Shown piece by piece: positions 28,587-41,636 of a stretch of DNA of 64,000 bases. The position numbers and the translations under genes were made by a program. The DNA lies in contig CALGYR010000143.1 in the NCBI GenBank assembly GCA_937935355.1, positions 8,077 through 72,076 on the forward strand, in the 5' to 3' direction. The notes beneath the pieces were generated by a model, which saw nothing but the letters and a program-made list of their open reading frames with translations, had not been told where the DNA came from and did not search any database. Positions within the stretch are counted from its first letter, which is position 1. Each line of letters starts with the position of its first letter. This DNA comes from an uncultured bacterium. Lineage in GTDB: Bacteria; Planctomycetota; SZUA-567; JAKLDR01.

Positions 28587-30245
28587 TTAGTCGGCGATCC
28601 GCTTCCAGTCCAGTCCGAACCTCGCCAGGTACTTCCTGAGCCGGTCGGCGTCATTGGTGCGGCTCCGGCGCAGCCGCGAGGTGGCGAATAGCGCCCGGCC
28701 GGCATCCGAGAGCGAGCGCGAGCGGCGGCAGACCCGCACTACTCCGGCCAGCTGCATCCGGTCGAATAGGTCGAGCCCGCCGAGCCGCTCGGCGCCCAGC
28801 AGCGCTCCGAGCTCCCCTTCCCCGTCGCCGGCAGCGTCCACGCCTGCCGCCCCTGCCGCCCCTGCCGCCCCTGCTGCCCCCGATGCCGGGCTCTCCGGGT
28901 CACGCCAGGACTCGAGCAGCCTCGCGAGCTCCTCCTCGACGATCTCGATGTTGATGCGGCCTCCGGGCGCCAGCGTCGCCATCCGGGTGATGGAGGCGTC
29001 GAGGTCGCGGAAGTTGGCCGCCCAGCGCGCCTGGGGCGAGGTCGCGAAGGCCAGATAGCGGTCGCGGGCCTCCTTGTTGAAGGTCACGTGGGCGCCGCTG
29101 GTTCGCGCGTAGCCGTCGAGTTCGTACTGGAGATTGGGCTCGATGTCCTCGGCGCGCTCGCGGAGCCCGGGGAGCCGGAAGGTCCAGAGGTTGATGCGGG
29201 TGAGCAGGTCCTCGCGGAAGCGCCCGGCGGCGACGTCCGCGGAGAGGTCCCGGTTCGTGCCGCAGATCAGCTGGAAGTCGCTCCCGGCCTCCTCGTCGGC
29301 GCCCATGGGCAGGAAGCGCTTTTCCTCGAGCGCGCGCAGCAGCATGGCCTGCTCGTCGAGGCCGAGCTCGCCGACCTCGTCGAGGAAGAGCATGCCGCCG
29401 TCGGCGGCGCGGAGCAGCCCGGCCCGGTCCTGGAGCGCGCCGGTGAAGGCGCCCTTCCGGTGGCCGAAGAGCGCGCTCATGGCCGCGTCGCCGCGCAGCG
29501 TCGCGCAGTTGACCTCCACGAAGGCGCCCTCGAACTGCCGCCGGGCGCGCTTCAACTCGTAGATCCGCCGGGCGAGCTGGCTTTTCCCCGCGCCCGTGGG
29601 GCCCATGAGCAGCACCGGCGCCTCCGAGTGGATGGCCACGCGCTCGATCTGTTCGATCATCCGGTTGAAGGCGGCGTTGCGGGTCTCGATGCCTGACTTC
29701 AGGAGCGAGACCTCGTCGGCCTGCTCCTTCCGGAAGCGCGTCGCGATCCGGTCGTACTTCGAAAGGTCCAGGTCGATGATACGGTACTCGCCGGGCGACT
29801 CGATGATGCTGCGCTTCGGCGGGCTCGACTGGACGAGCCGCGCCGGAAAGGCCCGCGACTCGGTGAGCAGGAAGAGGCAGATCTGGGCCACGTGCGTCCC
29901 GGTGGTGATGTGGACCAGGTAGTCCTCCTCGTCGGGGTCGAAGGGGTAGGCGTGGGCGAAGTCGTGGAGCGCGCCGTAGACCTCCTCGAAGTCCCAGGGG
30001 TCCTGGAGCTCGACCTCGGTGCAGCGCACCTCGGTCTCGGGCGAGACGTCGCGGACGTCGCGCGCGAGCGTCTCGCACAGGCGCGTCCAGCGCTTCTGGT
30101 AGAGCAGCTCGTAGCGGTCGACGATCAGGTCCTCGTGCTGGCACAGCGACACCGACGGCCGCCACTTCTCCCAACGCCGGTGGCCGGCCCCCTCGTCGAG
30201 CGTGGGGCCGAGCAGGCCGATGAGGACGGTCTTTTTGGCTGTCAT
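28587..30245 (-). CDS. rtcR: sigma54-dependent transcriptional regulator RtcR (CARF-like N-domain, AAA+ sigma54-interaction domain, C-terminal HTH)
   Basis: The N-terminus aligns closely with E. coli RtcR (...RWEKWRPSVSLCQHEDLIVDRYELLY...PETEV...ELQDPWDFEEVYGALHDFA...YLVHITTGTHVAQICLFLL...ARLVQSSPPK). Central domain has GPTGAGKS Walker A and the GAFTGA motif. Confidence 0.9.
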   Translation of the reverse strand: MTAKKTVLIGLLGPTLDEGAGHRRWEKWRPSVSLCQHEDLIVDRYELLYQKRWTRLCETLARDVRDVSPETEVRCTEVELQDPWDFEEVYGALHDFAHAYPFDPDEEDYLVHITTGTHVAQICLFLLTESRAFPARLVQSSPPKRSIIESPGEYRIIDLDLSKYDRIATRFRKEQADEVSLLKSGIETRNAAFNRMIEQIERVAIHSEAPVLLMGPTGAGKSQLARRIYELKRARRQFEGAFVEVNCATLRGDAAMSALFGHRKGAFTGALQDRAGLLRAADGGMLFLDEVGELGLDEQAMLLRALEEKRFLPMGADEEAGSDFQLICGTNRDLSADVAAGRFREDLLTRINLWTFRLPGLRERAEDIEPNLQYELDGYARTSGAHVTFNKEARDRYLAFATSPQARWAANFRDLDASITRMATLAPGGRINIEIVEEELARLLESWRDPESPASGAAGAAGAAGAAGVDAAGDGEGELGALLGAERLGGLDLFDRMQLAGVVRVCRRSRSLSDAGRALFATSRLRRSRTNDADRLRKYLARFGLDWKRIAD

Positions 30246-30512
30246 CTTATGTCTCCGGCTAAAGAAGTAGCATATAAGATAGTACTAGCAGGTGGTCTGC
30301 AGTCAATCGCAAACGTCGACTTCTCTGGCTGCACAACGTAAGTGACGGATATGCGCTTGTTGCGCCTTGAGCGCCGAAAATCTCGGTGCGTTCCGACTTC
30401 TGGCACGTGCCGTGTTATTGGAGCCTCCCGGTTGACACGGCCGGGCCGGCGGCGCACGAGTCTCACCCGGTGATCGACGACGTGCGTTCCGCGGAGGGAT
30501 CTGACGATGGCG

Positions 30513-30585
30513 TGTCAGCAGCGAGTGTCGCTCAACGGCAGAGCACCGGGCCTGTAGCCCGGGGATGCGGGTTCGAATCCCGCCA
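30513..30585 (+). tRNA. tRNA-like cloverleaf A (Thr-like; anticodon-position TGT); atypical, possibly a pseudo-tRNA or mimic
   Basis: Fold: acceptor GCGAGTG/CATTCGA with a G1:A72 mismatch. D-arm GCTC-AACGGCA-GAGC, anticodon arm CCGGG-CCTGTAG-CCCGG (C at position 33 where U is near-invariant), T-arm GCGGG-TTCGAAT-CCCGC. No CCA. Its 3' end overlaps the next element by ~3 nt. Confidence 0.4.
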
Positions 30586-30588
30586 TTC

Positions 30589-30672
30589 GATCGGACAGCC
30601 CAACGGCTGGGCACCAGACTGAGGATCTGGCGAGCGTAAGCTCATGCAGGTTCGAATCCTGCTCCGAAGGCC
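30589..30672 (+). tRNA. tRNA-like cloverleaf B (class II, Leu-like; anticodon GAG); acceptor end imperfect
   Basis: D-arm GCCC-AACGGCT-GGGC. Anticodon arm CCAGA-CTGAGGA-TCTGG (U33 present). Long variable arm C-GAGC-GTAA-GCTC-AT. T-arm GCAGG-TTCGAAT-CCTGC. The acceptor GATCGGA/TCCGAAG pairs in only 5 of 7 positions. Confidence 0.45.
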
Positions 30673-31185
30673 TTTAAGGCTTTCCAAACGGCTGGAGGGG
30701 AGCGGCCGCTCGACCTGCCGGCCGGGAAGAGGACTCCGGTGGAACCTCGCCCGGCAGCATGCGAGCTCGCCCTGAGGCGCGCGGATACCGTCCCGCCCGA
30801 AACCCCGCGACGGCCCCGGGAAGAAAGTCGAGGCCCGCACGGCTCGATGGATTCCCCGCGCCAGAGCGGGTTAGTAGGGCAGGTCTCAAACGCGACCCCG
30901 CGAAGGAACTGCGGTGGACGGACGGCCGCTCCCTGAAGGCTAGCACATCGAGCGATTGGAGGGCGAGGCTCCTGCCGAGCCGCGCCCCACATCGAGAGAA
31001 GAACGAACCGGCTCGCCAGGAGGCTCGCCCTCCAGACGGCCGCAAGAAGAAATAAGCCTACGGAGAGAAGAGAAACGATGAGAGCACCAAGCTGGTCGCT
31101 GGCCTAACGGGAAGGCGACCGGTCGCGACGGAAGGTCCCGGGGAGTCTCCGGGGCGATCAGTCAAAGCTGAAAGGGGGAATGGGT

Positions 31186-31257
31186 TGGCTGCTAGCTCAA
31201 GCGGCAGAGCACCCGCCCGCAAGGCGGACCATCCTGGCTCGAAACCAGGGCAGTCAG
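31186..31257 (+). tRNA. tRNA-like cloverleaf C (Cys-like; anticodon GCA); atypical C33 and C54
   Basis: Acceptor TGGCTGC/GCAGTCA (7 bp including one G:U), U8. D-arm GCTC-AAGCGGCA-GAGC. Anticodon arm CCCGC-CCGCAAG-GCGGA (C33, G38). T-arm CCTGG-CTCGAAA-CCAGG (C54). Discriminator G, no CCA. Confidence 0.5.
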
Positions 31258-31264
31258 CCGGAAC

Positions 31265-31340
31265 TGGTCGCTAGCTCAAGGGATAGAGCGTCCGCCCGCG
31301 AAGCGGGAGAGTCCTGGTTCGAATCCGGGGCGACCAGCCA
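31265..31340 (+). tRNA. tRNA-like cloverleaf D (Arg-like D-arm; anticodon-position GCG); atypical C33
   Basis: Acceptor TGGTCGC/GCGACCA, U8A9. D-arm GCTC-AAGGGATA-GAGC. Anticodon arm TCCGC-CCGCGAA-GCGGG (C33; a GCG anticodon is not normally used in bacteria). T-arm CCTGG-TTCGAAT-CCGGG. G + CCA encoded. Begins 5 nt after element C. Confidence 0.5.
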
Positions 31341-31350
31341 GACGCTGGAA

Positions 31351-31412
31351 GGCACATAGGCACATAGGCACATAGGGACTGAGGCACTGAGGCACTGAGG
31401 CACTTAGGCGCT
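31351..31412. repeat. tandem octamer repeats (GGCACATA)x3 then (GGCACTGA)x4
   Basis: ggcacataggcacataggcacatagggactgaggcactgaggcactgaggcacttaggcgctgag, directly after tRNA-like D and upstream of the SPFH gene. Confidence 0.7.
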
Positions 31413-31417
31413 GAGCG

Positions 31418-31434
31418 AAGGCAAGCGCGTTGCC
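31418..31434 (+). promoter_or_regulatory. sigma54-type promoter candidate (aGGCAAG-cgcg-TTGCc; GG-N10-GC)
   Basis: Matches TGGCACG-N4-TTGCW at 12 of 14 positions with correct -24 GG / -12 GC spacing, 14 nt upstream of the SPFH start codon. Expected for an RtcR-controlled operon. Caveat: the predicted TSS would leave almost no leader. Confidence 0.35.
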
Positions 31435-31447
31435 GGAGGGAAGAACG

Positions 31448-32554
31448 ATGTTGTTCGTGAAGCGGATCAAGATCGCCAAGCTCGAGAAGGGGCTCTACTT
31501 CAAGGACCGGGAGTTCCAGGGCATCCTGGAGCCGGGCAAGTACCGGTTCCTCGACCCGCTCGGCAAGGTCCGGGTCGAGGTCGTCTCGGTGCGCGACCCG
31601 TGGCTGGTCCACCGCGAGCTCGACGTGATCGTCAAGTCGGGCGCGCTCAAGGACCGGGCGGCCGTCGTGGACCTGAAGGACCACGAGCGGGCCCTGGTCT
31701 GGATCGACGGCCGGTTCGACACGGTGCTCGACTCGGGCCTCTGGGCGCTCTGGACCGGCTTCCGCGACGTCAGGGTCGAGATGGTCGACGCGCGGCAGGT
31801 GCGGTTCGAGCACGCCGAGCTCCAGACCATCCTAAAGGCCAAGGGCGCCGACGCCGTCTTCAACGTCTTCACTGTCGAGGACGGCCACGCGGGCCTGTAC
31901 TTCAGGGACGGCGAGTTCGCGAGCCGTCTGGGTCCGGGCACCTACGCCTTCTGGAAGAACGTCGGCAGGGTGAAGCTCTACCAGGTCGACATGCGCGAGG
32001 CGGTGGCCGACGTCGCCGGTCAGGAGATCATGACCGCCGACAAGGTCACCCTGCGACTCAACGCGGTAGTGACCTACCGCGTCTCGGACCCGGTGAAGAC
32101 CGTGACCGAGGTGGAGGACGCCAGGCAGGCGCTCTACCGCGAGGCGCAGCTCGCGCTCCGCGCGGTGATCGGCACCCGGGAGCTCGACGCGCTGCTCTCG
32201 GACAAGGACGCCGTGGCCCGCGAGTGGGAGGACATGGTGCGCCGGCGCGCCCCGGCCTTCGGCATGGGCGTGGTCGCGCTCGGCATCCGCGACGTGATCC
32301 TCCCCGGGGAGATGAAGGAGCTCATGAACAGGGTCACCGAGGCGAAGAAGGCGGCCGAGGCCGCGCTCATCACCCGGCGCGAGGAGACCGCCGCGATGCG
32401 CTCGCAGTCGAACACCGCCCGGATCCTCGCGGAGAACCCGACCCTCATGCGCATCAGGGAGCTGGAGGTGCTGGAGAAGATTGCCGGCAAGGCCAGGCTC
32501 AACGTGGTCCTGGGCGACAAGGGTCTGACCGAGAAGGTGGTCAACTTGCTATAG
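31448..32554 (+). CDS. SPFH/band-7 (slipin/stomatin-like) domain protein
   Basis: Start at ATG 31448 (GGAGGG RBS) inside ORF 31430..32554. The central region (...ADKVTLRLNAVVTYRVSDP...GIRDVILPGEMKELMNRVTEAKKAAEA...) is typical of the SPFH domain. Confidence 0.8.
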   Translation: MLFVKRIKIAKLEKGLYFKDREFQGILEPGKYRFLDPLGKVRVEVVSVRDPWLVHRELDVIVKSGALKDRAAVVDLKDHERALVWIDGRFDTVLDSGLWALWTGFRDVRVEMVDARQVRFEHAELQTILKAKGADAVFNVFTVEDGHAGLYFRDGEFASRLGPGTYAFWKNVGRVKLYQVDMREAVADVAGQEIMTADKVTLRLNAVVTYRVSDPVKTVTEVEDARQALYREAQLALRAVIGTRELDALLSDKDAVAREWEDMVRRRAPAFGMGVVALGIRDVILPGEMKELMNRVTEAKKAAEAALITRREETAAMRSQSNTARILAENPTLMRIRELEVLEKIAGKARLNVVLGDKGLTEKVVNLL

Positions 32555-32614
32555 AAGGGAGGTGGAGGGGGCCGGGCCGGGGCGTGTGGCCCGGCCCCCG
32601 GGGAAGGCTCATCA

Positions 32615-32687
32615 GCCACAGATAAACACAGATGAACACCGATGAGGACGACCTATAATCTGTGTCCATCTGTGTGCATCTGTGGCT
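32615..32687. repeat. MITE-like palindromic element, copy 2
   Basis: gccacagataaacacagatgaacaccgatgaggacgacctataatctgtgtccatctgtgtgcatctgtggct, 25 nt upstream of the rtcA start. Confidence 0.7.
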
Positions 32688-32711
32688 AAGAGCTGCTTCT
32701 GGAGTGAGGCC

Positions 32712-33731
32712 ATGATTACGATAGATGGTTCATTCGGCGAAGGCGGCGGGCAGATCCTCAGGACCGCCCTGGGCCTCTCGCTCGTCACCGGCAAGCCCTT
32801 CCGGATCGAGAAGATCCGGGCGGGTCGCAAGAAGCCTGGGCTCTTGCGGCAGCACCTCACTGCGGTGAACGCCGCGGCCGAGGTCGGCCGGGCCGGGGTC
32901 CGCGGCGCGGCGCTCGGCTCCGGTGAGCTCGTCTTCGAGCCGGGCCAGGTGGCTGGCGGGCGCTACCGCTGGGCCATCGGCACGGCCGGCAGCGCGACGC
33001 TCGTGCTCCAGACCGTTCTGCCGGCGCTCTTGACCGCCAGGGAGCCGAGCTCCTTGAAGCTCGAGGGCGGCACTCACAACCCGTTCGCTCCGCCCTTCGA
33101 CTTCCTCCAGAAGGCCTTCCTGCCGCTGGTATGCCGGATGGGCCCGAAGGTGGAGGCGACGCTCGTCCGGCCCGGCTTCTATCCGGCCGGCGGCGGCTGC
33201 TTCAAGGTGGAAGTCGCGCCGGCGGAGCGGCTCTCGCGGATCGACATCCCCGAGCGGGGCGAGGTCCGGCGGCGGCTGGCCCGGGCGCTCGTCGCCAACC
33301 TGCCGCTGCACATAGCGACGCGGGAGCTCACGGTCATCGGCCGGAAGCTCAACTGGCCGGACGAGTGCCTGAGGGCCGAGCCCGTCGAGGGCTCGCAGGG
33401 GCCGGGGAACATCGTGGTGATCGAGATCGAGGGCGAGGGCGTCACCGAGGTGGTCACCGGCTTCGGCGAGAAGGGCGTGCCCGCCGAGAGCGTCGCCGAC
33501 GCAGCGGTCCGGGAGGCGCGGGAGTACATCGCCGCGGGGGCCCCGGTCGGCGCGCACCTGGCCGATCAGCTCTTGGTGCCCATGGCGCTCGCCGGCGGCG
33601 GGAGCTTCCGGACGGCCGCGCCGACGCGGCATACCACGACCAACGCCAAGATCATCGGCCGGTTCCTGGATGTCGCGGTGAGGATCGAGAGGGAGGATTC
33701 GGCGACCTGGAAGGTCGCCATTTCCTCGTAG
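32712..33731 (+). CDS. rtcA: RNA 3'-terminal phosphate cyclase RtcA
   Basis: MITIDGSFGEGGGQILRTALGLSLVTGKPFRIEKIRAGRKKPGLLRQHLTAV is the hallmark N-terminus of RtcA. Full-length similarity to the family. GGAGTGAGG RBS before ATG 32712. Confidence 0.9.
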   Translation: MITIDGSFGEGGGQILRTALGLSLVTGKPFRIEKIRAGRKKPGLLRQHLTAVNAAAEVGRAGVRGAALGSGELVFEPGQVAGGRYRWAIGTAGSATLVLQTVLPALLTAREPSSLKLEGGTHNPFAPPFDFLQKAFLPLVCRMGPKVEATLVRPGFYPAGGGCFKVEVAPAERLSRIDIPERGEVRRRLARALVANLPLHIATRELTVIGRKLNWPDECLRAEPVEGSQGPGNIVVIEIEGEGVTEVVTGFGEKGVPAESVADAAVREAREYIAAGAPVGAHLADQLLVPMALAGGGSFRTAAPTRHTTTNAKIIGRFLDVAVRIEREDSATWKVAISS

Positions 33732-33734
33732 ACT

Positions 33735-33835
33735 CCTTCTCCCCTTGAGGGAGAAGGTCGGGATGAGGGGTGTGCCCCGGAGCTGAACCCCTCACCCTAG
33801 CCCTCTCCCTCAGGGGGAGAGAGAACCTGAGACGA
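33735..33835. repeat. REP-like 100-bp palindromic element, copy A (CTCCCCTTGAGGGAGA..GTGAGGGGT..ACCCCTCACCCT..CCCTCTCCCTCAGGGGGAGAG)
   Basis: Internal inverted repeats (TCCCCTTGAGGGAGA / TCTCCCTCAGGGGGAGA; TGAGGGGT / ACCCCTCA). A near-identical copy lies 600 bp downstream. Confidence 0.65.
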
Positions 33836-33860: not shown

Positions 33861-34463
33861 ATGCCCATCTACGGAGACGCTCCCAAGCTGCGCGCGGAAG
33901 TCGACCGTCAGTTGCTCGAGGATCTGCGACACTACGGCTTCGACACGGCCGGGTTGCGGATCGACTGGTCGGATGGCTGCCAGGAGGGTCATAGTGCCAG
34001 GTTCATGGATGGTGAGTTGGAGGACGACTCTTCGGTTGGGGTCCTGGATGCCGCGGGCAACGCCGTGGCCGGAGGCGCCATCAATTTCCAAAACGACGGC
34101 GACCGGGAGTTGGTGGTGTACTGGGAGGGCTTGTCTCGCTTTCAAGGGAAGGAACCGGTCGTGCTCACACGGACGTGCTGGGCTCCTTTTCCGGAGCACG
34201 TCTGGGAGCGAATGTCGGACCGTTTGAAAGACATCTGCGCACGGAAACACGCGGTGCGTTGGACGAACTCGGACCGGTGGACGAGAGAGAAGTGGCAGAA
34301 GGAGAACCCGGGGCTGGTGGCAGCCATGGAATCTTCCGCTCGTACCCCCTCTCCCCTTGAGGGAGAGGGCGGGGGTGAGGGGTTAGCCCCGGAGCCCACC
34401 CCTCACCCTGACCCTCTCCCCCAAGGGGAGAGGGGACCTAAGAGGATGGAGAATTCGGCATGA
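33861..34463 (+). CDS. hypothetical protein embedded in the rtcA-rtcB interval
   Basis: 200-aa ORF with an RBS. No recognisable domain. Its last ~40 codons (..TPSPLEGEGGGEGLAPEPTPHPDPLPQGERGP..) are encoded by REP-like copy B. Confidence 0.45.
   Translation: MPIYGDAPKLRAEVDRQLLEDLRHYGFDTAGLRIDWSDGCQEGHSARFMDGELEDDSSVGVLDAAGNAVAGGAINFQNDGDRELVVYWEGLSRFQGKEPVVLTRTCWAPFPEHVWERMSDRLKDICARKHAVRWTNSDRWTREKWQKENPGLVAAMESSARTPSPLEGEGGGEGLAPEPTPHPDPLPQGERGPKRMENSA
34338..34442. repeat. REP-like 100-bp palindromic element, copy B
   Basis: ccctctccccttgagggagagggcgggggtgaggggttagccccggagcccacccctcaccctgaccctctcccccaaggggagagg. Direct repeat of copy A. Confidence 0.65.
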
Positions 34464-35137
34464 AGCCGCGGCCTTGTCCTGAGCGCTACGCCGGGTACGT
34501 GGAGCATCCGCGATACGGCCGTGCGCCTCGCCTCACCGGCCTGGATCCCGATCCGGACTCGCCGGAGGTGCGCCTGCACTGGAACACGCGGCACTGCACG
34601 GATGCTCAGTTGAAGACGATGAAGAGGCTTCTGGGCTGGAGCCCGGCCTTCCCCGACGACGGCACACGGATGGTGCCCGGCACGGCCGTGGCCGCGGACG
34701 TGGCGCGCCAGACGCCCGCGACCGTGCCTGTCACCCACTACTACGACATCGACAAGGTCTGCCGGGACTGTCGCCGGAGATTCATCTTCTTCGCCGAGGA
34801 GCAGAAGCACTGGTACGAAGAGCTCGAATTCCCGCTCGATGCCGACGCGGTGCGCTGCGCTCCCTGTCGGAAGCGCATGCAGCACATCGGTCGGGCACGC
34901 AAGCGTTACGAGCAGTTGTCCCACGTGGCATCCCGGAACCTCGAGGAGACTCTGGAGATGGCTGACTGCTGCCTGATGCTGATCGAGGAAGCCGTCTTCC
35001 ATCAACGGCAGGCCGAGCGCGTCCGGATGCTCCTCGGGCGCGTTCCTGAGGCTGCAAAACGGGATCGGCGAGTAACGGATTTGACCGCCCGCCTCCGCGC
35101 TGTCGAGGCGGACGCGAAGCAAGGAGGTCGCAAGTGA
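34460..35137 (+). CDS. hypothetical zinc-ribbon protein, translationally coupled to rtcB
   Basis: Cys pairs CRDCRRRF...CAPCRKR suggest a zinc ribbon. Its stop overlaps the rtcB start (ATGA at 35134-35137) and its start overlaps the upstream stop. Unknown family. Confidence 0.5.
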   Translation: MKPRPCPERYAGYVEHPRYGRAPRLTGLDPDPDSPEVRLHWNTRHCTDAQLKTMKRLLGWSPAFPDDGTRMVPGTAVAADVARQTPATVPVTHYYDIDKVCRDCRRRFIFFAEEQKHWYEELEFPLDADAVRCAPCRKRMQHIGRARKRYEQLSHVASRNLEETLEMADCCLMLIEEAVFHQRQAERVRMLLGRVPEAAKRDRRVTDLTARLRAVEADAKQGGRK

Positions 35138-36528
35138 AGCCCAAGGAACTGATTGCGCTGGGTATTCCCCAGGGGGAGGCTACGAAGCGGGCCATCGCCG
35201 CCGTCCGGGCCGCGTCGCGGGCCGGCAAGGAGAAGATGGAGGTCGAGTCCGACCTCATCGCCCTGGTCGAGGACCCGGACCGGTTTGTCGAGGACGAGGT
35301 CTACGGCGAGCTCGCCGGCTACCTCGCCGAGGCGCAGCAGGCGCCGCCGGTCCGCGAGTCGCCCGTGCCCTACCGGCGTTGGGGCGAGGGGATCGAGCCC
35401 ACCGCCATCGGCCAGATGGAGAGCGCCTGCCGGCTGCCCGTCTCGGTCCGAGGGGCCTTGATGCCCGACGCCCACCAGGGCTACGGCCTGCCCATCGGAG
35501 GGGTGCTCGCCGTGCGCGACGCGGTCATCCCCTACGCGGTGGGCATGGACATTGCCTGCCGGATGAAGATGACCGTCCTCGACCTGCCCGTCGAGGCCTT
35601 GAAGCGGGATGAGAAGCGGCTGGAGGCCGCGCTGGTCCGCGAGACCGACTTCGGCATCGGTGCGTCCTTCGCCAGGCGGCGCGAACATCCGGTGATGGAC
35701 GAGGACTGGTCGGTGAGCCCCGTCACGATCCGCCACAAGGACCGCGCCTGGGCGCAGCTCGGCACCTCGGGCAGCGGCAACCACTTCGTGGAGTACGGCG
35801 TGCTCACCGTCGAGAGCGAGGCCGGCGCGCTGGGCCTCGCGCCCGGGACGTACCTCGCGATCCTGAGCCACAGCGGCAGCCGCGGCACGGGCGGCGAGGT
35901 CGCGCGCTACTACAGCGACCTGGCCATGCGCCTGCACCGCGATCTGCCCCGGGAACTCCTGCACCTGGCGTGGCTCTCGCTCGAGAGCCAGGAGGGCCGG
36001 GAGTACTGGGCGGCCATGGAGCTCATGGGCCGCTACGCCGCGGCCAACCACGAGCTCATCCACCGGCACATGGCCAGGGCGCTGGGCGTCAACGTGCTCC
36101 TCGACATCGAGAACCACCACAACTTCGCCTGGCGGGAGGAGCACTATGGCGAGGGGGTGGTGGTCCACAGGAAGGGTGCCACCCCGGCGGGGGAGGACGC
36201 CATCGGGATCATCCCCGGCTCGATGGCCACGCCGGCCTTCGTGGTCCGGGGCAAGGGCGAGCCCGAGTCGCTCAACTCCGCCTCCCACGGCGCAGGCCGC
36301 AAGATGAGCCGCACCGAGGCCAAGCGCCGCTTCCGACAGCACGACTTGGACGCCTTCCTGGCCGAGCGCGGCGTGAAGCTGCTCTCGGCGGGCATCGACG
36401 AGGCGCCCATGGCCTACAAGAAGATCGAGGAGGTCATGGCGGCGCAGACCGATCTCGTCGAGCCGCTGGCCAGGTTCGAGCCGAAACTGGTGCGCATGGC
36501 ACCGGGCTCTGAGAGAGCCGAAGATTAG
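35134..36528 (+). CDS. rtcB: RNA-splicing ligase RtcB (3'-phosphate/5'-OH RNA ligase)
   Basis: Signature RtcB metal- and GTP-binding motifs: MPDAHQGYG, GTSGSGNHF, SHSGSRG, NHHNF, SASHGAGR. Carries a ~70-aa N-terminal extension. Confidence 0.9.
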   Translation: MKPKELIALGIPQGEATKRAIAAVRAASRAGKEKMEVESDLIALVEDPDRFVEDEVYGELAGYLAEAQQAPPVRESPVPYRRWGEGIEPTAIGQMESACRLPVSVRGALMPDAHQGYGLPIGGVLAVRDAVIPYAVGMDIACRMKMTVLDLPVEALKRDEKRLEAALVRETDFGIGASFARRREHPVMDEDWSVSPVTIRHKDRAWAQLGTSGSGNHFVEYGVLTVESEAGALGLAPGTYLAILSHSGSRGTGGEVARYYSDLAMRLHRDLPRELLHLAWLSLESQEGREYWAAMELMGRYAAANHELIHRHMARALGVNVLLDIENHHNFAWREEHYGEGVVVHRKGATPAGEDAIGIIPGSMATPAFVVRGKGEPESLNSASHGAGRKMSRTEAKRRFRQHDLDAFLAERGVKLLSAGIDEAPMAYKKIEEVMAAQTDLVEPLARFEPKLVRMAPGSERAED

Positions 36529-36694: not shown

Positions 36695-37507
36695 ATGGAG
36701 ATGGCGATGTTCGACGTACGACAGGCTGACTTGGCGAAGCTGAACAGCCTCACCAAGTACCCCTCGATACCGACCTATCACGTGCTCGACGAGGGCAACG
36801 GCAGCCTCGGGGAGGACCATGTGGCCTTCGATGGCCGGGTCCTGGCCACTGAGAAGGTCGACGGCACCAATTCGCGCGTGATCTGTCTGCCGGACGGCAG
36901 CTACCTGCTGGGCAGTCGCGAGGAGTTGCTCTACGCCCGGGGGGATCTCATCGGCAACCCGTCGATGGGCATCGTCGCCGCCATGAAGGACAAGGCGGAT
37001 GAGCTCCGTGGCCGCGCCCCCGACCGTGTGCGCGTCTTCTTCTGCGAGTTCTACGGCGGGGCGGTGACGGCCAACAGCCGGCAGTACACGGGGGAGCGCC
37101 GTGCGGGCTTCCGGCTCTTCGACGTGGCCGAGATCGAAGATTACGCCGCCGTCCTCGACCGTCCGGCGGCGGCGATCGCCGCATGGCGGGACGGGGGCGG
37201 GCAGCGCTACCTGGCCGAAGACGATCTCCGGCAGTTGGCCGCGGCGTCCGGCCTGGAACTGACGCCCCGCGTGGCCGAGTTGGATGCCGGGGCGCTTCCC
37301 GGGAGCCTGGTCGACGGTCTGGCCTTTCTGCAGCGGACGATCACGAAGAGCGGCTGCGTGCTCGACGACAAGGCCGGCGGCAGGCCGGAGGGCCTCGTGG
37401 TGAGGACGCCCGACCGTCGGGTCATCGCCAAGCTGCGGTTCCAAGACTACGAGAGGACGCTCAAACGGCGCGAGAAGGACGCCGGGAGCGGCAGGCGAAA
37501 GGAGTGA
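36695..37507 (+). CDS. ATP-dependent RNA ligase (Rnl-type covalent nucleotidyltransferase)
   Basis: Motif I TEKVDGTNSRV (KxDGxN). Downstream ...FFCEFYGG..., EGLVVRT (motif IV EGxV) and VIAKLRF (motif V lysine). Compact 270 aa with no obvious OB or extra domains. The true start may be ATG 36701 or 36707. Confidence 0.7.
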   Translation: MEMAMFDVRQADLAKLNSLTKYPSIPTYHVLDEGNGSLGEDHVAFDGRVLATEKVDGTNSRVICLPDGSYLLGSREELLYARGDLIGNPSMGIVAAMKDKADELRGRAPDRVRVFFCEFYGGAVTANSRQYTGERRAGFRLFDVAEIEDYAAVLDRPAAAIAAWRDGGGQRYLAEDDLRQLAAASGLELTPRVAELDAGALPGSLVDGLAFLQRTITKSGCVLDDKAGGRPEGLVVRTPDRRVIAKLRFQDYERTLKRREKDAGSGRRKE

Positions 37508-37530
37508 GGCAGCGCGGTTGCCGACGCATC

Positions 37531-38307
37531 ATGGATACCAGGCATCTTATCGCCCAGTTCGGGAGGATCGGTGCGCGCCTGCAGGTCAGGAGCGCTCCGG
37601 AAGATCGCCGCGTGCGGGTCTTGGGGTTTGCGCTGGATGTGCGCGGCGACCGACGCGGTGAGTTTTTCGAACTCATCGCACCGCAGGACCGCGGCTTCCG
37701 GGTGTTGGCCCTGGACGCGAAGGATCGCCATCTCCTGCTGGAGGCCGAGGCCGACAGCGAGCGCTTCCTCTGCGGTCACGACGAGCGCCACTGGTTCGTG
37801 GCCGGCGTTAGCAACCGGGTGAGCTCGGTCCGGGCGGCAAAAGAGTCGCTGAGGCCCGAGATCGTGAGCCGGTCGCTCGAGGATCACGGTGTCCGGCCCA
37901 AGGACCGCGACCGGCGGCGGAACAAGGGCTTCGTGCGCCAGGGCGAATGGTTCTTCATTCCGGTCGGGAGGCTGGCCGTCAAGGAGAAGCTGATCCTGCG
38001 CAACGAGCCGCTCGTGCGCGGCCGTGGCAAGCCCCACATGGCCGAGGAGCTCTACCGCGAAGGCGGCCAGACCGTCCACGTCTGCCCGAAGTATCCGAAT
38101 GGCGTCACGCCGAAGGAGTACGCGGAGCTGATCGCAGCCCGGCCCGATCTCCGCCGGCTGAACTGGCGGGTGATGAGCCGCAACCCGCGGGCCTACGTCC
38201 GCGGCCGGATCCGCCATCCGGACCACAAGACCGTCCTGCTCCGCGTCTGGCACCGGGTGGTGCCCAACCAGGAGCGGATGAGCCAGAACATGGCGTTTCT
38301 GGACTGA
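37531..38307 (+). CDS. hypothetical protein (257 aa), immediately downstream of the RNA ligase
   Basis: Starts at ATG 37531 inside artefact ORF 37183..38307. Protein-like composition with no recognisable motif. Confidence 0.5.
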   Translation: MDTRHLIAQFGRIGARLQVRSAPEDRRVRVLGFALDVRGDRRGEFFELIAPQDRGFRVLALDAKDRHLLLEAEADSERFLCGHDERHWFVAGVSNRVSSVRAAKESLRPEIVSRSLEDHGVRPKDRDRRRNKGFVRQGEWFFIPVGRLAVKEKLILRNEPLVRGRGKPHMAEELYREGGQTVHVCPKYPNGVTPKEYAELIAARPDLRRLNWRVMSRNPRAYVRGRIRHPDHKTVLLRVWHRVVPNQERMSQNMAFLD

Positions 38308-38340
38308 ATAGGTTACAGTAGGCGGGATTCGAGGCTACTG

Positions 38341-39201
38341 ATGGACGCCAAGCGATCACGATTGTTGAAGGCAGCCCGGGCCGGCGATGCCAACGCGCAG
38401 TGTGAACTGGCGTGCTGTTACGATTTCGATCCACCTAAAGATCGAAGGCGAGCCTTTCGGTGGTATCTCAAGGCGGCGAAGAAAGGCCACGTAGAGGCTC
38501 AGAACTTCCTGGCAGAGGCCTACCGTGATGGGGCGGGAACCACACCATCGCGCAGGAAAGCGCTGCCATGGTTTCGTCGGGCGGCTGAGCAAGGAGATGC
38601 GGATGCCCAGCTATCGTTGGGCTGTGCGCTTTTCTACGGCGAAGGCTGCGGCAGGGACCGGAAGGAAGCCCTGTACTGGTACCGCAAAGCGGCTCGCCTC
38701 GGGCAGAGTTCAGCCATGCTCAACATCGGGCACATGTTCAGGCGAGGTGAAGGGCTGCCGCAGAAATGGGCAAGCGCCATCCAGTGGTACAAGAAGGCTG
38801 CCGCCAAGGGAAACGTGGCCGCCATGCACTGGCTGGCCAGGGTCCATGGCGGCCAGGAGAAGCATCCTGTAGACAGCCGTGAAGCCTTGAAGTGGCTCCA
38901 CAAAGCTGCAGCTAGGGGCGACGCGCAGTCGCAGTGCAACCTTGGCGTCCACTACATCAATGGCGAGGGCGTCCGTAAGAATGCTCGGAAGGGAGCGGCC
39001 CTGTACCGCCAGGCTGCCGAGGGTGGAGATGAGTGGGCCTTCTATCTGCTGGGGCTCTGCTATAGTGATGGGCTCGGTGTCAGGAAGAACATCCGCGTCG
39101 CGCGTGCTTGGTTCCATAAGGCGGCCGCACGGAAAGTCGCCGAGGCGAAAGAGACCATGAGAGCCATGTCTGGCGGCGCGATAGCAGGAACCAGGAGCTA
39201 G
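38341..39201 (+). CDS. Sel1-like repeat (SLR/TPR-like) protein
   Basis: Repeated ~36-aa units with the A..G.A.AQ..LG..Y..G.GV..D...A..W..KAA pattern. Locally lower GC. Confidence 0.75.
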   Translation: MDAKRSRLLKAARAGDANAQCELACCYDFDPPKDRRRAFRWYLKAAKKGHVEAQNFLAEAYRDGAGTTPSRRKALPWFRRAAEQGDADAQLSLGCALFYGEGCGRDRKEALYWYRKAARLGQSSAMLNIGHMFRRGEGLPQKWASAIQWYKKAAAKGNVAAMHWLARVHGGQEKHPVDSREALKWLHKAAARGDAQSQCNLGVHYINGEGVRKNARKGAALYRQAAEGGDEWAFYLLGLCYSDGLGVRKNIRVARAWFHKAAARKVAEAKETMRAMSGGAIAGTRS

Positions 39202-39210
39202 GAATCGCCC

Positions 39211-40614
39211 ATGCTCCTAACCATCACCACCACTCACCGCCCGGCCACCGACCTCGGCTGGCTGCTCCACAAGCACCCGGGGAAGTGCCAGTCGTTCGAG
39301 CTGCCCTTCGGGAAGGCCCACGTCTGCTATCCCGAGGCCACCGAGGAGCGCTGCACGGCGGCGCTGGTGCTCGACATCGATCCGGTGGGCTTGGTCCGCA
39401 AGCAGGGTGGTCCATCGGGCCGGGACTGGTCGCTCGAGCAGTATGTCAACGACCGGCCCTACGTGGCCTCGTCGTTCCTGAGCGTGGCCATCTCCCGGGT
39501 CTTCGGGACCGCCGTCTCCGGCACCTGTAAGAGTAAGCAGGAGCTCGCCGACTCGAAGCTGCCCTTCGAGGTCAAGCTCGCCGCCGTGCCCTGCCGGGGC
39601 GGGGAGACGCTGCTGCGTGCGCTCTTCGAGCCGCTCGGCTACTCGGTGACCGCCCGCCGCCACACGCTGGACACCAAGTTCCCGGAATGGGGCGAGAGCC
39701 TTTACCACACCGTGGAACTCGCCGGGACGGTGCGGCTGGCCGACCTGCTCTCCCACCTCTACGTGCTGGTCCCCGTCCTCGACGACGACAAGCACTACTG
39801 GGTGGGCGAGGCTGAGGTGGAGAAGCTCCTGCGCCACGGCGAAGGCTGGCTGGCCGACCATCCGGCCAAGGAGCAGATCGCCAGGCGGTATCTCTCGCAT
39901 CGCCGGAACCTGACCCGCGAGGCGCTCGCGCGGCTCGCCGACGAGGACGCCCCCGACCCGGAGGCCGAGGGCCGCTCGCGGGCTCGCGAGGAGGAGGAGG
40001 TCGAGAAGGCGCTCAACCTCAACGAGCAGCGCCTGGGCGCGGTCCTGGCGGCGCTCCGCTCGGCCGGCGCCCGGCGGGTGCTCGACCTCGGCTGCGGCGA
40101 GGGCCGGCTGCTCGGGAGCCTGATCAAGGACAAGAGCTTCACGGAGGTCGTCGGGCTCGACGCGTCCGTGCGGGCGCTCGAGATCGCCAAGCGCCGCTTG
40201 AAGCTCGACCGCCTCTCGCCCGCCGACCGCGAACGCGTGAAGCTCCTCCACGGGGCGCTCACCTACCGGGACAAGCGCCTGGCTGGCTTCGACGCCGCCG
40301 CGGTGGTGGAGGTCGTCGAGCACCTCGACCCGCCGCGCCTGGCGGCCTTCGAGCGCGTCCTCTTCGAGTTCGCCAGGCCCGCGGCCATCGTGCTCACCAC
40401 CCCGAACGTGGAGTACAACGCCAGGTTCGAGAACATGCCCGCCGGCAAGCTCCGCCACAAGGACCACCGCTTCGAGTGGACCCGCGCGGAGTTCCGGGCC
40501 TGGGCGGAGGCGGTTGCCGGACGCTTCGGCTACGCGGTGCGGTTCCTGCCGGTGGGGGCGGAGGACCCACAGTTCGGGCCGCCGACGCAGATGGCGGTAT
40601 TTGTGAGGGTCTGA
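39211..40614 (+). CDS. hen1: bacterial Hen1 RNA 3'-terminal ribose 2'-O-methyltransferase
   Basis: The MLLTITTTHRPATDLGWLLHKHP N-terminus is characteristic of bacterial Hen1. The C-terminal methyltransferase has the SAM motif VLDLGCGEGRLL and ...VVEVVEHLD... Confidence 0.85.
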   Translation: MLLTITTTHRPATDLGWLLHKHPGKCQSFELPFGKAHVCYPEATEERCTAALVLDIDPVGLVRKQGGPSGRDWSLEQYVNDRPYVASSFLSVAISRVFGTAVSGTCKSKQELADSKLPFEVKLAAVPCRGGETLLRALFEPLGYSVTARRHTLDTKFPEWGESLYHTVELAGTVRLADLLSHLYVLVPVLDDDKHYWVGEAEVEKLLRHGEGWLADHPAKEQIARRYLSHRRNLTREALARLADEDAPDPEAEGRSRAREEEEVEKALNLNEQRLGAVLAALRSAGARRVLDLGCGEGRLLGSLIKDKSFTEVVGLDASVRALEIAKRRLKLDRLSPADRERVKLLHGALTYRDKRLAGFDAAAVVEVVEHLDPPRLAAFERVLFEFARPAAIVLTTPNVEYNARFENMPAGKLRHKDHRFEWTRAEFRAWAEAVAGRFGYAVRFLPVGAEDPQFGPPTQMAVFVRV

Positions 40615-40624
40615 GAGGAGCCCC

Positions 40625-40834
40625 ATGGCCAACTCACGCGCCTTCAATCCCAACATGGTCGTCTCTGCCGGCACCCAGGTGGTGTCGCTGAAGGAGGTCC
40701 GCGGCACCAACGGCGCCATACTGCACCCCAGGGGCGCGGTGGGAGTCATCGTCAAGTCGCCGGTCGACAACGATCTGCTGATCAGGCTGAGGGTCGATCA
40801 TCTAGCAGACACAAGGCGCCTCGAACATGTCTGA
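40625..40834 (+). CDS. small hypothetical protein (69 aa)
   Basis: AGGAG RBS 5 nt before the ATG. Balanced composition. Its end overlaps the next start by 8 nt. Confidence 0.4.
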   Translation: MANSRAFNPNMVVSAGTQVVSLKEVRGTNGAILHPRGAVGVIVKSPVDNDLLIRLRVDHLADTRRLEHV

Positions 40835-41636
40835 GCGGGCGCAGGTGCGTGAGGCTGCCGTCCTGGCGGCCATTGAGGATCTCTTCGCGATCTTCGCCGC
40901 GTATCCACTGCAGCCCGTTGTCCATGGCTGTCCGCACTGCATTACCGAGCACGACAACGCACTGCTTCACTCCAGGCCGCTTCGACGGCTGACTTGGGTC
41001 GAGCTGGAACGGTACGCCTTCAAGGCTCTGACGACTTGGGGAAGTGTCGAGGATTTCAAGCACTTCCTGCCGCGGCTATTCGAACTGATCGCAGGTGAAG
41101 AAGAGTCGGTGATAGATTCCGAAGTGCTGGTCGGCAAACTTGCTGTCGGTCAGTGGGCCAGCTGGCCAGCCGCTGAACAAGGAGCGATCCGCTCATTTCT
41201 GATGGCGTGGTGGATCAAGACCATCCATGCACGAGTGGATCCATCTGAGTTTGAGCTGGATGGTGGCGTCCCTTGGAGTCATGGCGGCACACCCGCCGAT
41301 CATGTGCTATGTTGCATCAGTCGGGCCGAGGCAGATGTCGGGCCATATTTGCAGGCCTGGCTGGACGCCCAGGGCGTCGAGCCCAGTTATCACTTGGCCG
41401 TCTTCATTTGGGGCAACCTGGCCGCGATTCAAAAGGGGCGCACGACGGACAGCGCGTGCCCGGAACAGCCACAGATGGAGCAGGTGATCGCTTGGCTCCT
41501 GAAGGCCGACACGGCCAAGCACCTTGAGAAGGCCGCTGAGCGATACTGGGACAGCCCCTACGTGATCCTGATCTTGCAGGCCAGCGAGCAGCTGGACAGT
41601 CTGCGCCAGACCTTTCCGCCCAAAGCGAGGCCCTGA
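40827..41636 (+). CDS. hypothetical protein (269 aa), low-GC insertion between hen1 and pnkp
   Basis: Protein-like composition (W/F/H/Y-rich, e.g. ...HGCPHCITEHDNALLH...). Its stop lies 1 nt before the pnkp start. No family recognised. Confidence 0.5.
   Translation: MSERAQVREAAVLAAIEDLFAIFAAYPLQPVVHGCPHCITEHDNALLHSRPLRRLTWVELERYAFKALTTWGSVEDFKHFLPRLFELIAGEEESVIDSEVLVGKLAVGQWASWPAAEQGAIRSFLMAWWIKTIHARVDPSEFELDGGVPWSHGGTPADHVLCCISRAEADVGPYLQAWLDAQGVEPSYHLAVFIWGNLAAIQKGRTTDSACPEQPQMEQVIAWLLKADTAKHLEKAAERYWDSPYVILILQASEQLDSLRQTFPPKARP

Follow-up and report, generated by a model that had tools for sequence, protein, structure and literature searches.

In the current study we examined two open reading frames (ORFs) located between rtcA and rtcB, which encode an RNA 3'-phosphate cyclase and an RNA ligase, respectively, in a 64 kb stretch of DNA from a Planctomycetota bacterium (referred to below as the window, to which all coordinates refer unless another locus is named). 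Genes were assigned by Pfam scans of the ORFs of the window. Between rtcA (32682..33731, plus strand; PF01137, E 4e-79, and PF05189) and rtcB (35134..36528, plus strand; PF01139, E 4.4e-87) lie ORF1 (33861..34463, plus strand; 200 amino acids (aa)), the core of which, residues 1 to approximately 155, constitutes a small acidic alpha/beta protein, and ORF2 (34460..35137, plus strand; 225 aa), in which an N-terminal module is followed by a treble-clef zinc finger and, towards the C-terminus, by a TPR-like helical domain. An earlier reading of this DNA, the original prediction, had placed both ORFs correctly with respect to coordinates, lengths and flanking genes. It had furthermore described stop codons overlapping the following starts, with an ATGA at 35134-35137; inspection of the sequence confirmed a 4-nucleotide (nt) overlap at both junctions, but the ATGA is that of the ORF1 stop and ORF2 start (34460..34463, plus strand), whereas the quartet at 35134-35137 (plus strand), formed by the rtcB start and the ORF2 stop, reads GTGA because rtcB starts with GTG. 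A Shine-Dalgarno sequence, AAGGAGG, is present within ORF2 (35121-35127, plus strand), six bases upstream of the latter overlap.

Both ORFs share the strand of rtcA and rtcB, and rtcR (28587..30245, minus strand), which encodes a sigma-54 activator with an RtcR/CARF-type N-domain (PF06956, E 6.8e-85; PF00158, E 5e-50), is divergent from this row. Since no sigma-70-like promoter or intrinsic terminator-like site was found on the plus strand between rtcA and rtcB, co-transcription is the default reading, and ORF1 and ORF2 would be expected to be transcribed together with rtcA and rtcB under the control of RtcR.

Concerning the origin of this arrangement, relatives of the window RtcB were inspected in their contigs. 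In locus L151 (RtcB 68% identical), rtcR is followed by five tRNA-like genes, a Band_7 gene, rtcA and rtcB, and the rtcA stop overlaps the rtcB ATG directly (ATGA), which bears out the view that ORF1 and ORF2 are insertions relative to an rtcA-rtcB arrangement. In loci L009 and L153 (RtcB approximately 90%) a 7-nt gap separates rtcA from ORF2 (225 aa), which overlaps rtcB by 4 nt, and DUF5677, Hen1, RlaP and Pnkp genes follow; neither ORF1 nor the palindromic repeat that flanks it in the window (see below) is present in these two loci. Only L001 (RtcB 94%, ORF2 97%) has the order of the window, namely rtcA, repeat, ORF1, repeat, ORF2 and rtcB, so that among the related loci ORF1 is found in the rtc operon of the window and L001 alone. 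In L152 (RtcB 67%) rtcB directly follows rtcR, while in L149 (RtcB 85%) a GH123 glycosidase gene is located upstream of rtcB. The series formed by L151, by L009 and L153, and by the window and L001 therefore indicates that ORF2 was inserted at an ancestral rtcA/rtcB overlap and that ORF1 was added later. The overlap of the ORF2 stop with the rtcB start, which the original prediction had stressed, is kept wherever a related genome includes ORF2 in its rtc operon: the GTGA junction is shared by the window and L009, and the 4-nt overlap occurs also in L001 and L153.

The zinc-binding module of ORF2 occupies residues 96-142 (34745..34885, plus strand) and matches PF13451 (zf_Tbcl) with an E value of 2.2e-13 and 50.3 bits against a gathering cut-off of 24. 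Both CxxC pairs that had been noted, CRDC (C101 and C104) and CAPC (C133 and C136), are present and fall within this match, supporting the prediction that ORF2 is a zinc-binding protein. The label "zinc-ribbon" holds insofar as a zinc module is concerned, but Pfam, which formerly described the family as a "probable zinc-ribbon", now classes it as a "probable treble clef domain". In an alignment of 28 homologues the four cysteines are invariant, and a conserved N-terminal module, HPRYG...GTAxxAD...THYYD, is apparent (conserved positions H16-P-R-Y-G, H40-W, T75-A...A79-D, Q84 and T92-H-Y-x-D96), as is conservation of the helical C-terminus. All 28 match PF13451, and a permissive Pfam scan of them (E<=1) returned nothing else that was consistent. 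The PF13451 model spans only approximately 47 of the 225 residues of ORF2, and no Pfam, NCBIfam, PADLOC or PHROG model covers its N-terminal module or C-terminal helical domain. NCBIfam, PADLOC and PHROGs likewise gave no match for ORF1, ORF2 or an ORF of unknown function further downstream at 37.5-38.3 kb.

A search of 5.8 billion proteins retrieved 611 homologues of ORF2. The best 120 of these are 48-100% identical to the query, the full-length relatives cover approximately 95% of it at 48-76% identity, and the small number that have been named bear no label other than "zinc-ribbon domain containing protein". Full-length members of the family (approximately 200-250 aa) retain the N-terminal motifs and the C-terminal helices across their whole length. 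The AlphaFold2 model of ORF2 reached a predicted local distance difference test (pLDDT) score of 89.4 and a predicted template modelling (pTM) score of 0.79, while a comparison of the ORF1 and ORF2 sequences with PDB chains gave nothing below an E value of 0.4. A literature search for PF13451 (zf-trcl, IPR025306) identified no papers. Between the window and L009, the ratio of non-synonymous to synonymous substitution rates (dN/dS) is 0.18 for ORF2, 0.185 for rtcB and 0.23 for rtcA; ORF2 is thus a real gene under purifying selection.

The original prediction had suggested that this protein could serve RtcB as a cofactor, as Archease does, and had proposed co-occurrence with rtcB across genomes as a check, which was performed here as gene-neighbourhood linkage. 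In a scan of one genome per GTDB species, 203 stretches of DNA encode an ORF2 relative. The best 80 loci, with representatives in Planctomycetota, Verrucomicrobiota, Armatimonadota, Acidobacteriota, Alpha-, Beta- and Gammaproteobacteria, Cyanobacteria, Myxococcota and Nitrospirae, were examined by searching their flanks with the window RtcR, SPFH, RtcA, RtcB, Rnl, Sel1 and Hen1 proteins. Only one of the 80 has rtcA or rtcB in its flanks, and this is L009, a Planctomycetota metagenome-assembled genome of the same lineage (ORF2 76% and RtcB 90% identical to those of the window). At least 1.5 kb of sequence is available downstream of the ORF2 homologue in 66 of the 80 loci, with an adjacent rtcB in one of the 66. 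The four nearest out-of-lineage relatives on long contigs (65-72% identity) have no rtc genes nearby (0/4), their neighbours being NfeD, a signal peptidase together with a ParE-type toxin-antitoxin pair, HNH and URO-D, and a glycosyltransferase. Clustering of all neighbours within 4 kb revealed no recurrent neighbour family of ORF2 homologues. The largest cluster, comprising 10 loci, was set aside as the example listed for it overlaps the position of ORF2 in antisense orientation and looks like a shadow ORF, and the ten tightly adjacent neighbours include GDSL lipase, NUDIX, HemN, DUF4386, MFS, Rho (twice) and NuoC.

The proposed co-occurrence with rtcB accordingly failed at the level of gene neighbourhood. 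Members with no rtcB in the vicinity still retain the full length and all conserved motifs of the family, whose core function can therefore not depend on RtcB being encoded next to it, and a general role of ORF2 as an RtcB cofactor is highly improbable. A narrower version would make ORF2 a dedicated cofactor or substrate-recognition subunit of RtcB in this lineage, an analogue of Archease kept stoichiometric through translational coupling and binding damaged RNA or RtcB itself. Consistent with such a role, the insertion point is exactly the rtcA/rtcB junction, the window, L001, L009 and L153 all preserve the 4-nt overlap together with the Shine-Dalgarno sequence that lies within ORF2, and purifying selection on ORF2 equals that on rtcB; Archease itself (PMC3973293) offers a precedent for an operon-linked protein that alters RtcB catalysis. 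However, besides the near-absence of linkage described above, the sister rtc operons L151, L152 and L149 do without ORF2, and no signal of the Archease family (PF01951) was detected in Pfam scans of ORF1 and ORF2 (E<=0.1) or of the 28 ORF2 homologues (E<=1). We therefore regard a dedicated subunit of this kind as unlikely.

ORF1 presents a different picture. The word-indexed search of the same 5.8 billion proteins found only two relatives, P0122 (75% identity) and P0123 (40%), while a profile of the ORF1 core searched against 1.84 billion cluster representatives recovered 160 members at E<=1e-3, of which 120 reached E<=1e-10. They are mostly 130-170 aa long and share the motifs VExQLLxDL, DWSxxCxEGH, LENxS, GWxDF, VYW and IPxHxW; the family is uniformly acidic (isoelectric point (pI) 4.2-6.1), and a few members are fused to ankyrin repeats, DKNYY, DUF4328 or DUF7674. 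The model of ORF1 has a pLDDT of 73. In a metagenome scan for which a narrow alignment of the family was used, 53 of 55 loci lack rtc genes, the two exceptions representing the window's own lineage.

Comparison of the window with L001 revealed a block of divergence in ORF1. While nucleotide identity amounts to 95-98% for rtcA, ORF2, rtcB and the repeats, with synonymous divergence (dS) of 0.03-0.15, and the immediate flanks of the ORF1 core are 95-100% identical, sliding identity across the core itself (33960..34300, plus strand, corresponding to L001 644-984) falls to 50-80% in the absence of indels. For ORF1 as compared between the two genomes dS is approximately 0.99 and dN/dS 0.24, differences at codon positions 3, 1 and 2 number 64, 38 and 32, and all substitution types occur. 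The low dN/dS and the ordinary substitution spectrum argue for recombinational allele replacement and not for positive selection, and the pattern looks like the swap of a divergent allele, bounded by the conserved 5' end of ORF1 and the palindromic repeat. A diversity-generating retroelement was considered for the core and rejected, given that the window holds no second copy of 33940-34320 and that the variation is not adenine-specific. The ORF1 core is a real gene under purifying selection.

With both families in hand, the possibility that one or both ORFs are spurious, non-functional and specific to this lineage can be dismissed. The genome has a GC content of approximately 66-70%, at which long chance ORFs are common, and in the case of ORF1 the two relatives of the word-indexed search and a repeat-derived tail might have pointed in that direction. 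Nevertheless, this explanation is refuted for ORF2 by its 611 homologues, Pfam domain, confident model and dN/dS of 0.18, and for the ORF1 core by its 160 cluster-level homologues with conserved motifs, its dN/dS of 0.24 and the enrichment of differences at third codon positions; neither ORF is the lineage-specific junk that had been named as a refuting outcome.

As to what the ORF1 core does, an inhibitor or immunity-type protein, neutralising an RNase toxin or mimicking nucleic acid and carried as mobile cargo that is co-induced with repair, would fit the acidic nature, the small size (approximately 140-160 aa) and the occasional fusions of the family. It would also suit the company that other members keep, some copies adjoining a Tn3-family transposase and a tyrosine recombinase and further ones being set in arrays of small ORFs, one of them for a DMP19-like protein (a DNA-mimic family), as well as the strong divergence of the core between near-identical genomes. 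On the other hand, that divergence is of the kind produced by allele replacement, no toxin domain was found beside ORF1-family members in the small sample of neighbours examined, and ORF1 has no PADLOC, Pfam or PHROG match, all of which leaves this function distinctly doubtful.

The two palindromic repeats, each approximately 100 nt in length, bracket ORF1. Copy 1 (33732..33835) begins right after the rtcA stop codon and has a folding energy of -70.5 kcal/mol (z -5.8), and copy 2 (34344..34446) is situated inside the 3' end of ORF1 with -85.1 kcal/mol (z -6.8). The copies are about 80-85% identical to each other, and the palindrome has 45-nt arms that are 84% complementary (direct and inverted repeat families D2/D4 and I1-I3); the repeat motif occurs 4 times in the window against 0.04 expected. 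The window contains only two copies, and the repeat is absent from the fetched loci outside the lineage. Copy 2 encodes ORF1 residues 162-196 or thereabouts (...SPLEGEGGGEGLAPEPTPHPDPLPQGERG...), corresponding to the last 40 or so residues of the protein, and the ATGA overlap with ORF2 lies 14 nt past it. The homologue P0123 (145 aa) terminates at a point close to residue 150 of ORF1, before the tail encoded by the repeat begins. Most simply, therefore, the ORF1 tail and the ATGA overlap derive from insertion of the repeat and read-through across it, which explains the ATGA better than the evolved stoichiometric coupling that had been read into it. The tail itself (residues 160-200, approximately) may represent non-functional read-through.

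Taken together, we favour, at a probability of roughly 65%, the interpretation that ORF1 and ORF2 are unrelated accessory genes that were added in two steps to an RNA-repair island controlled by RtcR and sigma-54, in which rtcR, tRNA-like RNAs, SPFH and rtcA precede the insertion and rtcB, Rnl, Hen1 and Pnkp, with other genes between them, follow it. In the first step, ORF2, from a widespread and normally stand-alone family, would have entered the operon precisely where rtcA and rtcB had overlapped. The Shine-Dalgarno sequence and the 4-nt overlap that serve rtcB are now contained in the 3' end of ORF2, so that translation of RtcB in this lineage would be coupled to ORF2 instead of rtcA, being re-initiated by, or coupled to, ribosomes that finish ORF2. 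In the second step, confined to the sub-lineage of the window, ORF1 would have been inserted between rtcA and ORF2, drawn from a rare family associated with mobile elements and bracketed by the two repeat copies, with read-through of the downstream copy adding a 40-residue tail and the ATGA overlap arising incidentally. Both genes would be expressed from the RtcR-dependent transcript upon sensing of RNA damage. ORF2 is then most likely a zinc-finger/TPR-like binding or adaptor protein that acts by way of the zinc finger and the TPR-like surface, with a general role that would be independent of RtcB yet useful under the same RNA-damage stress, while ORF1 would be a passenger in the operon and possibly an inhibitor or immunity-type protein. 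The gene order, the purifying selection, the absence elsewhere of rtc genes near members of either family, the confidence of the fold and the anatomy of the repeats are direct observations on which this interpretation draws.

Several points weigh against it. The overlap of ORF2 and rtcB has been kept in four genomes across a dS of 0.3-0.85 with purifying selection, and a true partnership would look alike; a lineage-specific role of ORF2 with RtcB is accordingly possible. Only a handful of genomes from this lineage were sampled, and because the gene upstream of rtcB differs in L149, where it encodes GH123, the history of the locus includes rearrangements. The hairpins of -70 and -85 kcal/mol could attenuate transcription or affect mRNA stability. 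Finally, the resemblance of ORF2 to solved structures goes no further than generic TPR-like helices. A more ambitious variant would have the PF13451/TPR-like protein co-opted as an Rtc subunit, its helical domain binding RtcB, RtcA or RtcR and its zinc finger damaged RNA, in replacement of the rtcA-rtcB coupling, with ORF1 acting as an inhibitor of an RNase toxin; we consider this combination improbable. Were co-option true, it would reveal an RNA-centred function for a family of several hundred proteins spread over many bacterial phyla, and if ORF1 were an inhibitor as well, the operon would combine toxin neutralisation with damage repair.

The stepwise accretion favoured here is set in a larger island, in which all genes from the tRNA-like genes to Pnkp lie on one strand, divergent from rtcR. 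Four tRNA-like genes (30521-31340, plus strand) between rtcR and the SPFH gene are followed by the SPFH/Band-7 gene itself (31430-32554, plus strand), and downstream of rtcB a PF09414 RNA ligase (Rnl; 36695-37507), Hen1 (39211-40614) and Pnkp (41638-44238) are encoded, all on the plus strand. Between Rnl and Hen1 are an ORF of unknown function of approximately 257 aa (37.5-38.3 kb) and then a gene for a Sel1-repeat protein (both plus strand), while an ORF of unknown function of 269 aa (plus strand) separates Hen1 from Pnkp. The cargo slots on either side of Hen1, reaching to rtcB and to Pnkp, respectively, vary among relatives: in the window (36695-39201 and 40827-41636) they hold the PF09414 RNA ligase, the ORF of approximately 257 aa, the Sel1-repeat protein and the 269-aa ORF, and in L009 (10057-11004 and 12434-13384) and L153 (8587-9330 and 10790-12447) DUF5677 and one or two RlaP nucleotidyltransferases. 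In this respect the rtc island acts as a hot spot for the exchange of accessory genes.

The leader of the operon has features of its own. All related loci examined have pairs or triplets of tRNA-like genes, oriented as the operon, in the interval that separates rtcR from the first protein-coding gene (window 30521-30672 and 31186-31340, plus strand; L009 4810-5514; L153 3136-3840; L151 2443-3207; L152 5534-5609). Some neighbours overlap by a few nt (window 30521-30592 and 30589-30672) and others are approximately 5 nt apart, the "anticodons" at the same position differ (Cys-gca in the window, Lys-ctt in L009 and L153), and Rfam scores only two of the four window genes as tRNA. By analogy with the YrlA/Y RNAs of the Salmonella rsr-yrlBA-rtcBA operon and with the sensing of tRNA halves by RtcR (PMC7790460, PMC10159003), they resemble tRNA-like leader RNAs more than ordinary tRNA genes. 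Approximately 105 nt before the first of them, and approximately 155 nt from the rtcR start, lies a candidate sigma-54 promoter, TGGCACgtgccGTGT (30401-30415, plus strand), of the form TGGCAC-N5-GTGT and with 2 mismatches to the consensus, although the window contains 57 such matches against 61 expected by chance. An inverted repeat at 30957-31034 (26-nt arms, 92% complementary, 26-nt loop), in the stretch of approximately 500 nt between the tRNA-like pairs, may belong to a more extensive structured RNA. The SPFH start is closely preceded by a short tandem array (31344-31412, plus strand) of units of approximately 9 nt, GGCACATAG three times and then GGCACTGAG-like units. In the gap between SPFH and rtcA, a further inverted repeat (32614-32687; AGCCACAGATAAACACAGATGAACACCGAT / ATCTGTGTCCATCTGTGTGCATCTGTGGCT; 30-nt arms, 87% complementary, 14-nt loop) is unusually AT-rich for the region and overlaps the annotated GTG start of rtcA. 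A second sigma-54 enhancer-binding AAA+ domain, 35% identical to RtcR residues 183-433 or so, is encoded near the end of the window (61887-62528, minus strand).

In terms of significance, this analysis takes an attractive candidate off the list of possible bacterial equivalents of Archease, since linkage of the zinc-finger protein to rtcB is confined to a single shallow clade, and presents the locus as a dated, stepwise example of RNA-repair operons that would gain genes at translationally coupled junctions, including a palindromic repeat that seems to have extended a coding sequence and created a new stop/start overlap. It also provides a first, lineage-restricted contextual handle on a widespread uncharacterised family that joins an N-terminal module, PF13451 and a TPR-like domain. 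The composite island, with RtcR, tRNA-like leader RNAs, SPFH, RtcA, RtcB, Rnl, Hen1 and Pnkp, may outrank the two ORFs in interest, as may the tRNA-like leader RNAs in their own right.

With regard to known systems, the window resembles the rtc operons of Salmonella (rsr-yrlBA-rtcBA) and Escherichia coli (rtcBA) in its divergent rtcR, in having rtcA and rtcB on one strand and in the structured tRNA-like RNAs of the operon leader (PMC7790460, PMC10159003, PMC9650030); it differs from them in the order of rtcA before rtcB, the leading SPFH gene, the lack of Ro/Rsr, the two intervening ORFs and the fused Pnkp/Hen1 module. The palindromic repeats recall repetitive extragenic palindromic (REP) and miniature inverted-repeat transposable element (MITE) sequences, being near-perfect hairpins of approximately 100 nt of which two copies bracket an inserted gene within an operon, but only two copies occur in the 64 kb window, and one of these is translated in ORF1. 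As in Archease-RtcB pairs, a gene for a small protein lies immediately next to rtcB in one operon. Archease shares operons with RtcB in a wide range of archaea and bacteria and alters the kinetics and nucleoside triphosphate (NTP) use of RtcB (PMC3973293), whereas ORF2 is linked in one narrow lineage only, shows neither an Archease (PF01951) signal among its Pfam matches nor recurrent linkage to rtcB, and has a zinc finger and a TPR-like fold. A better frame is the accretion of accessory genes around RtcB-centred cores, which has been described as typical of these systems (PMC6514570) and of which PrfH-RtcB with TPR and other add-ons is an example (PMC6514570, citing Burroughs & Aravind 2016; PMC9304027). 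Here too, extra genes are sporadic and lineage-specific, in or beside the operon, and the cargo slots vary between the window and L009 or L153. The added families, a PF13451 protein and an acidic ORF1-type protein, set this case apart from those described, neither having been found in the searched literature, in which the lists of Burroughs & Aravind 2016 were not included. Accretion in such operons is therefore known, and what is new is a pair of previously unremarked inserts in an rtc operon.

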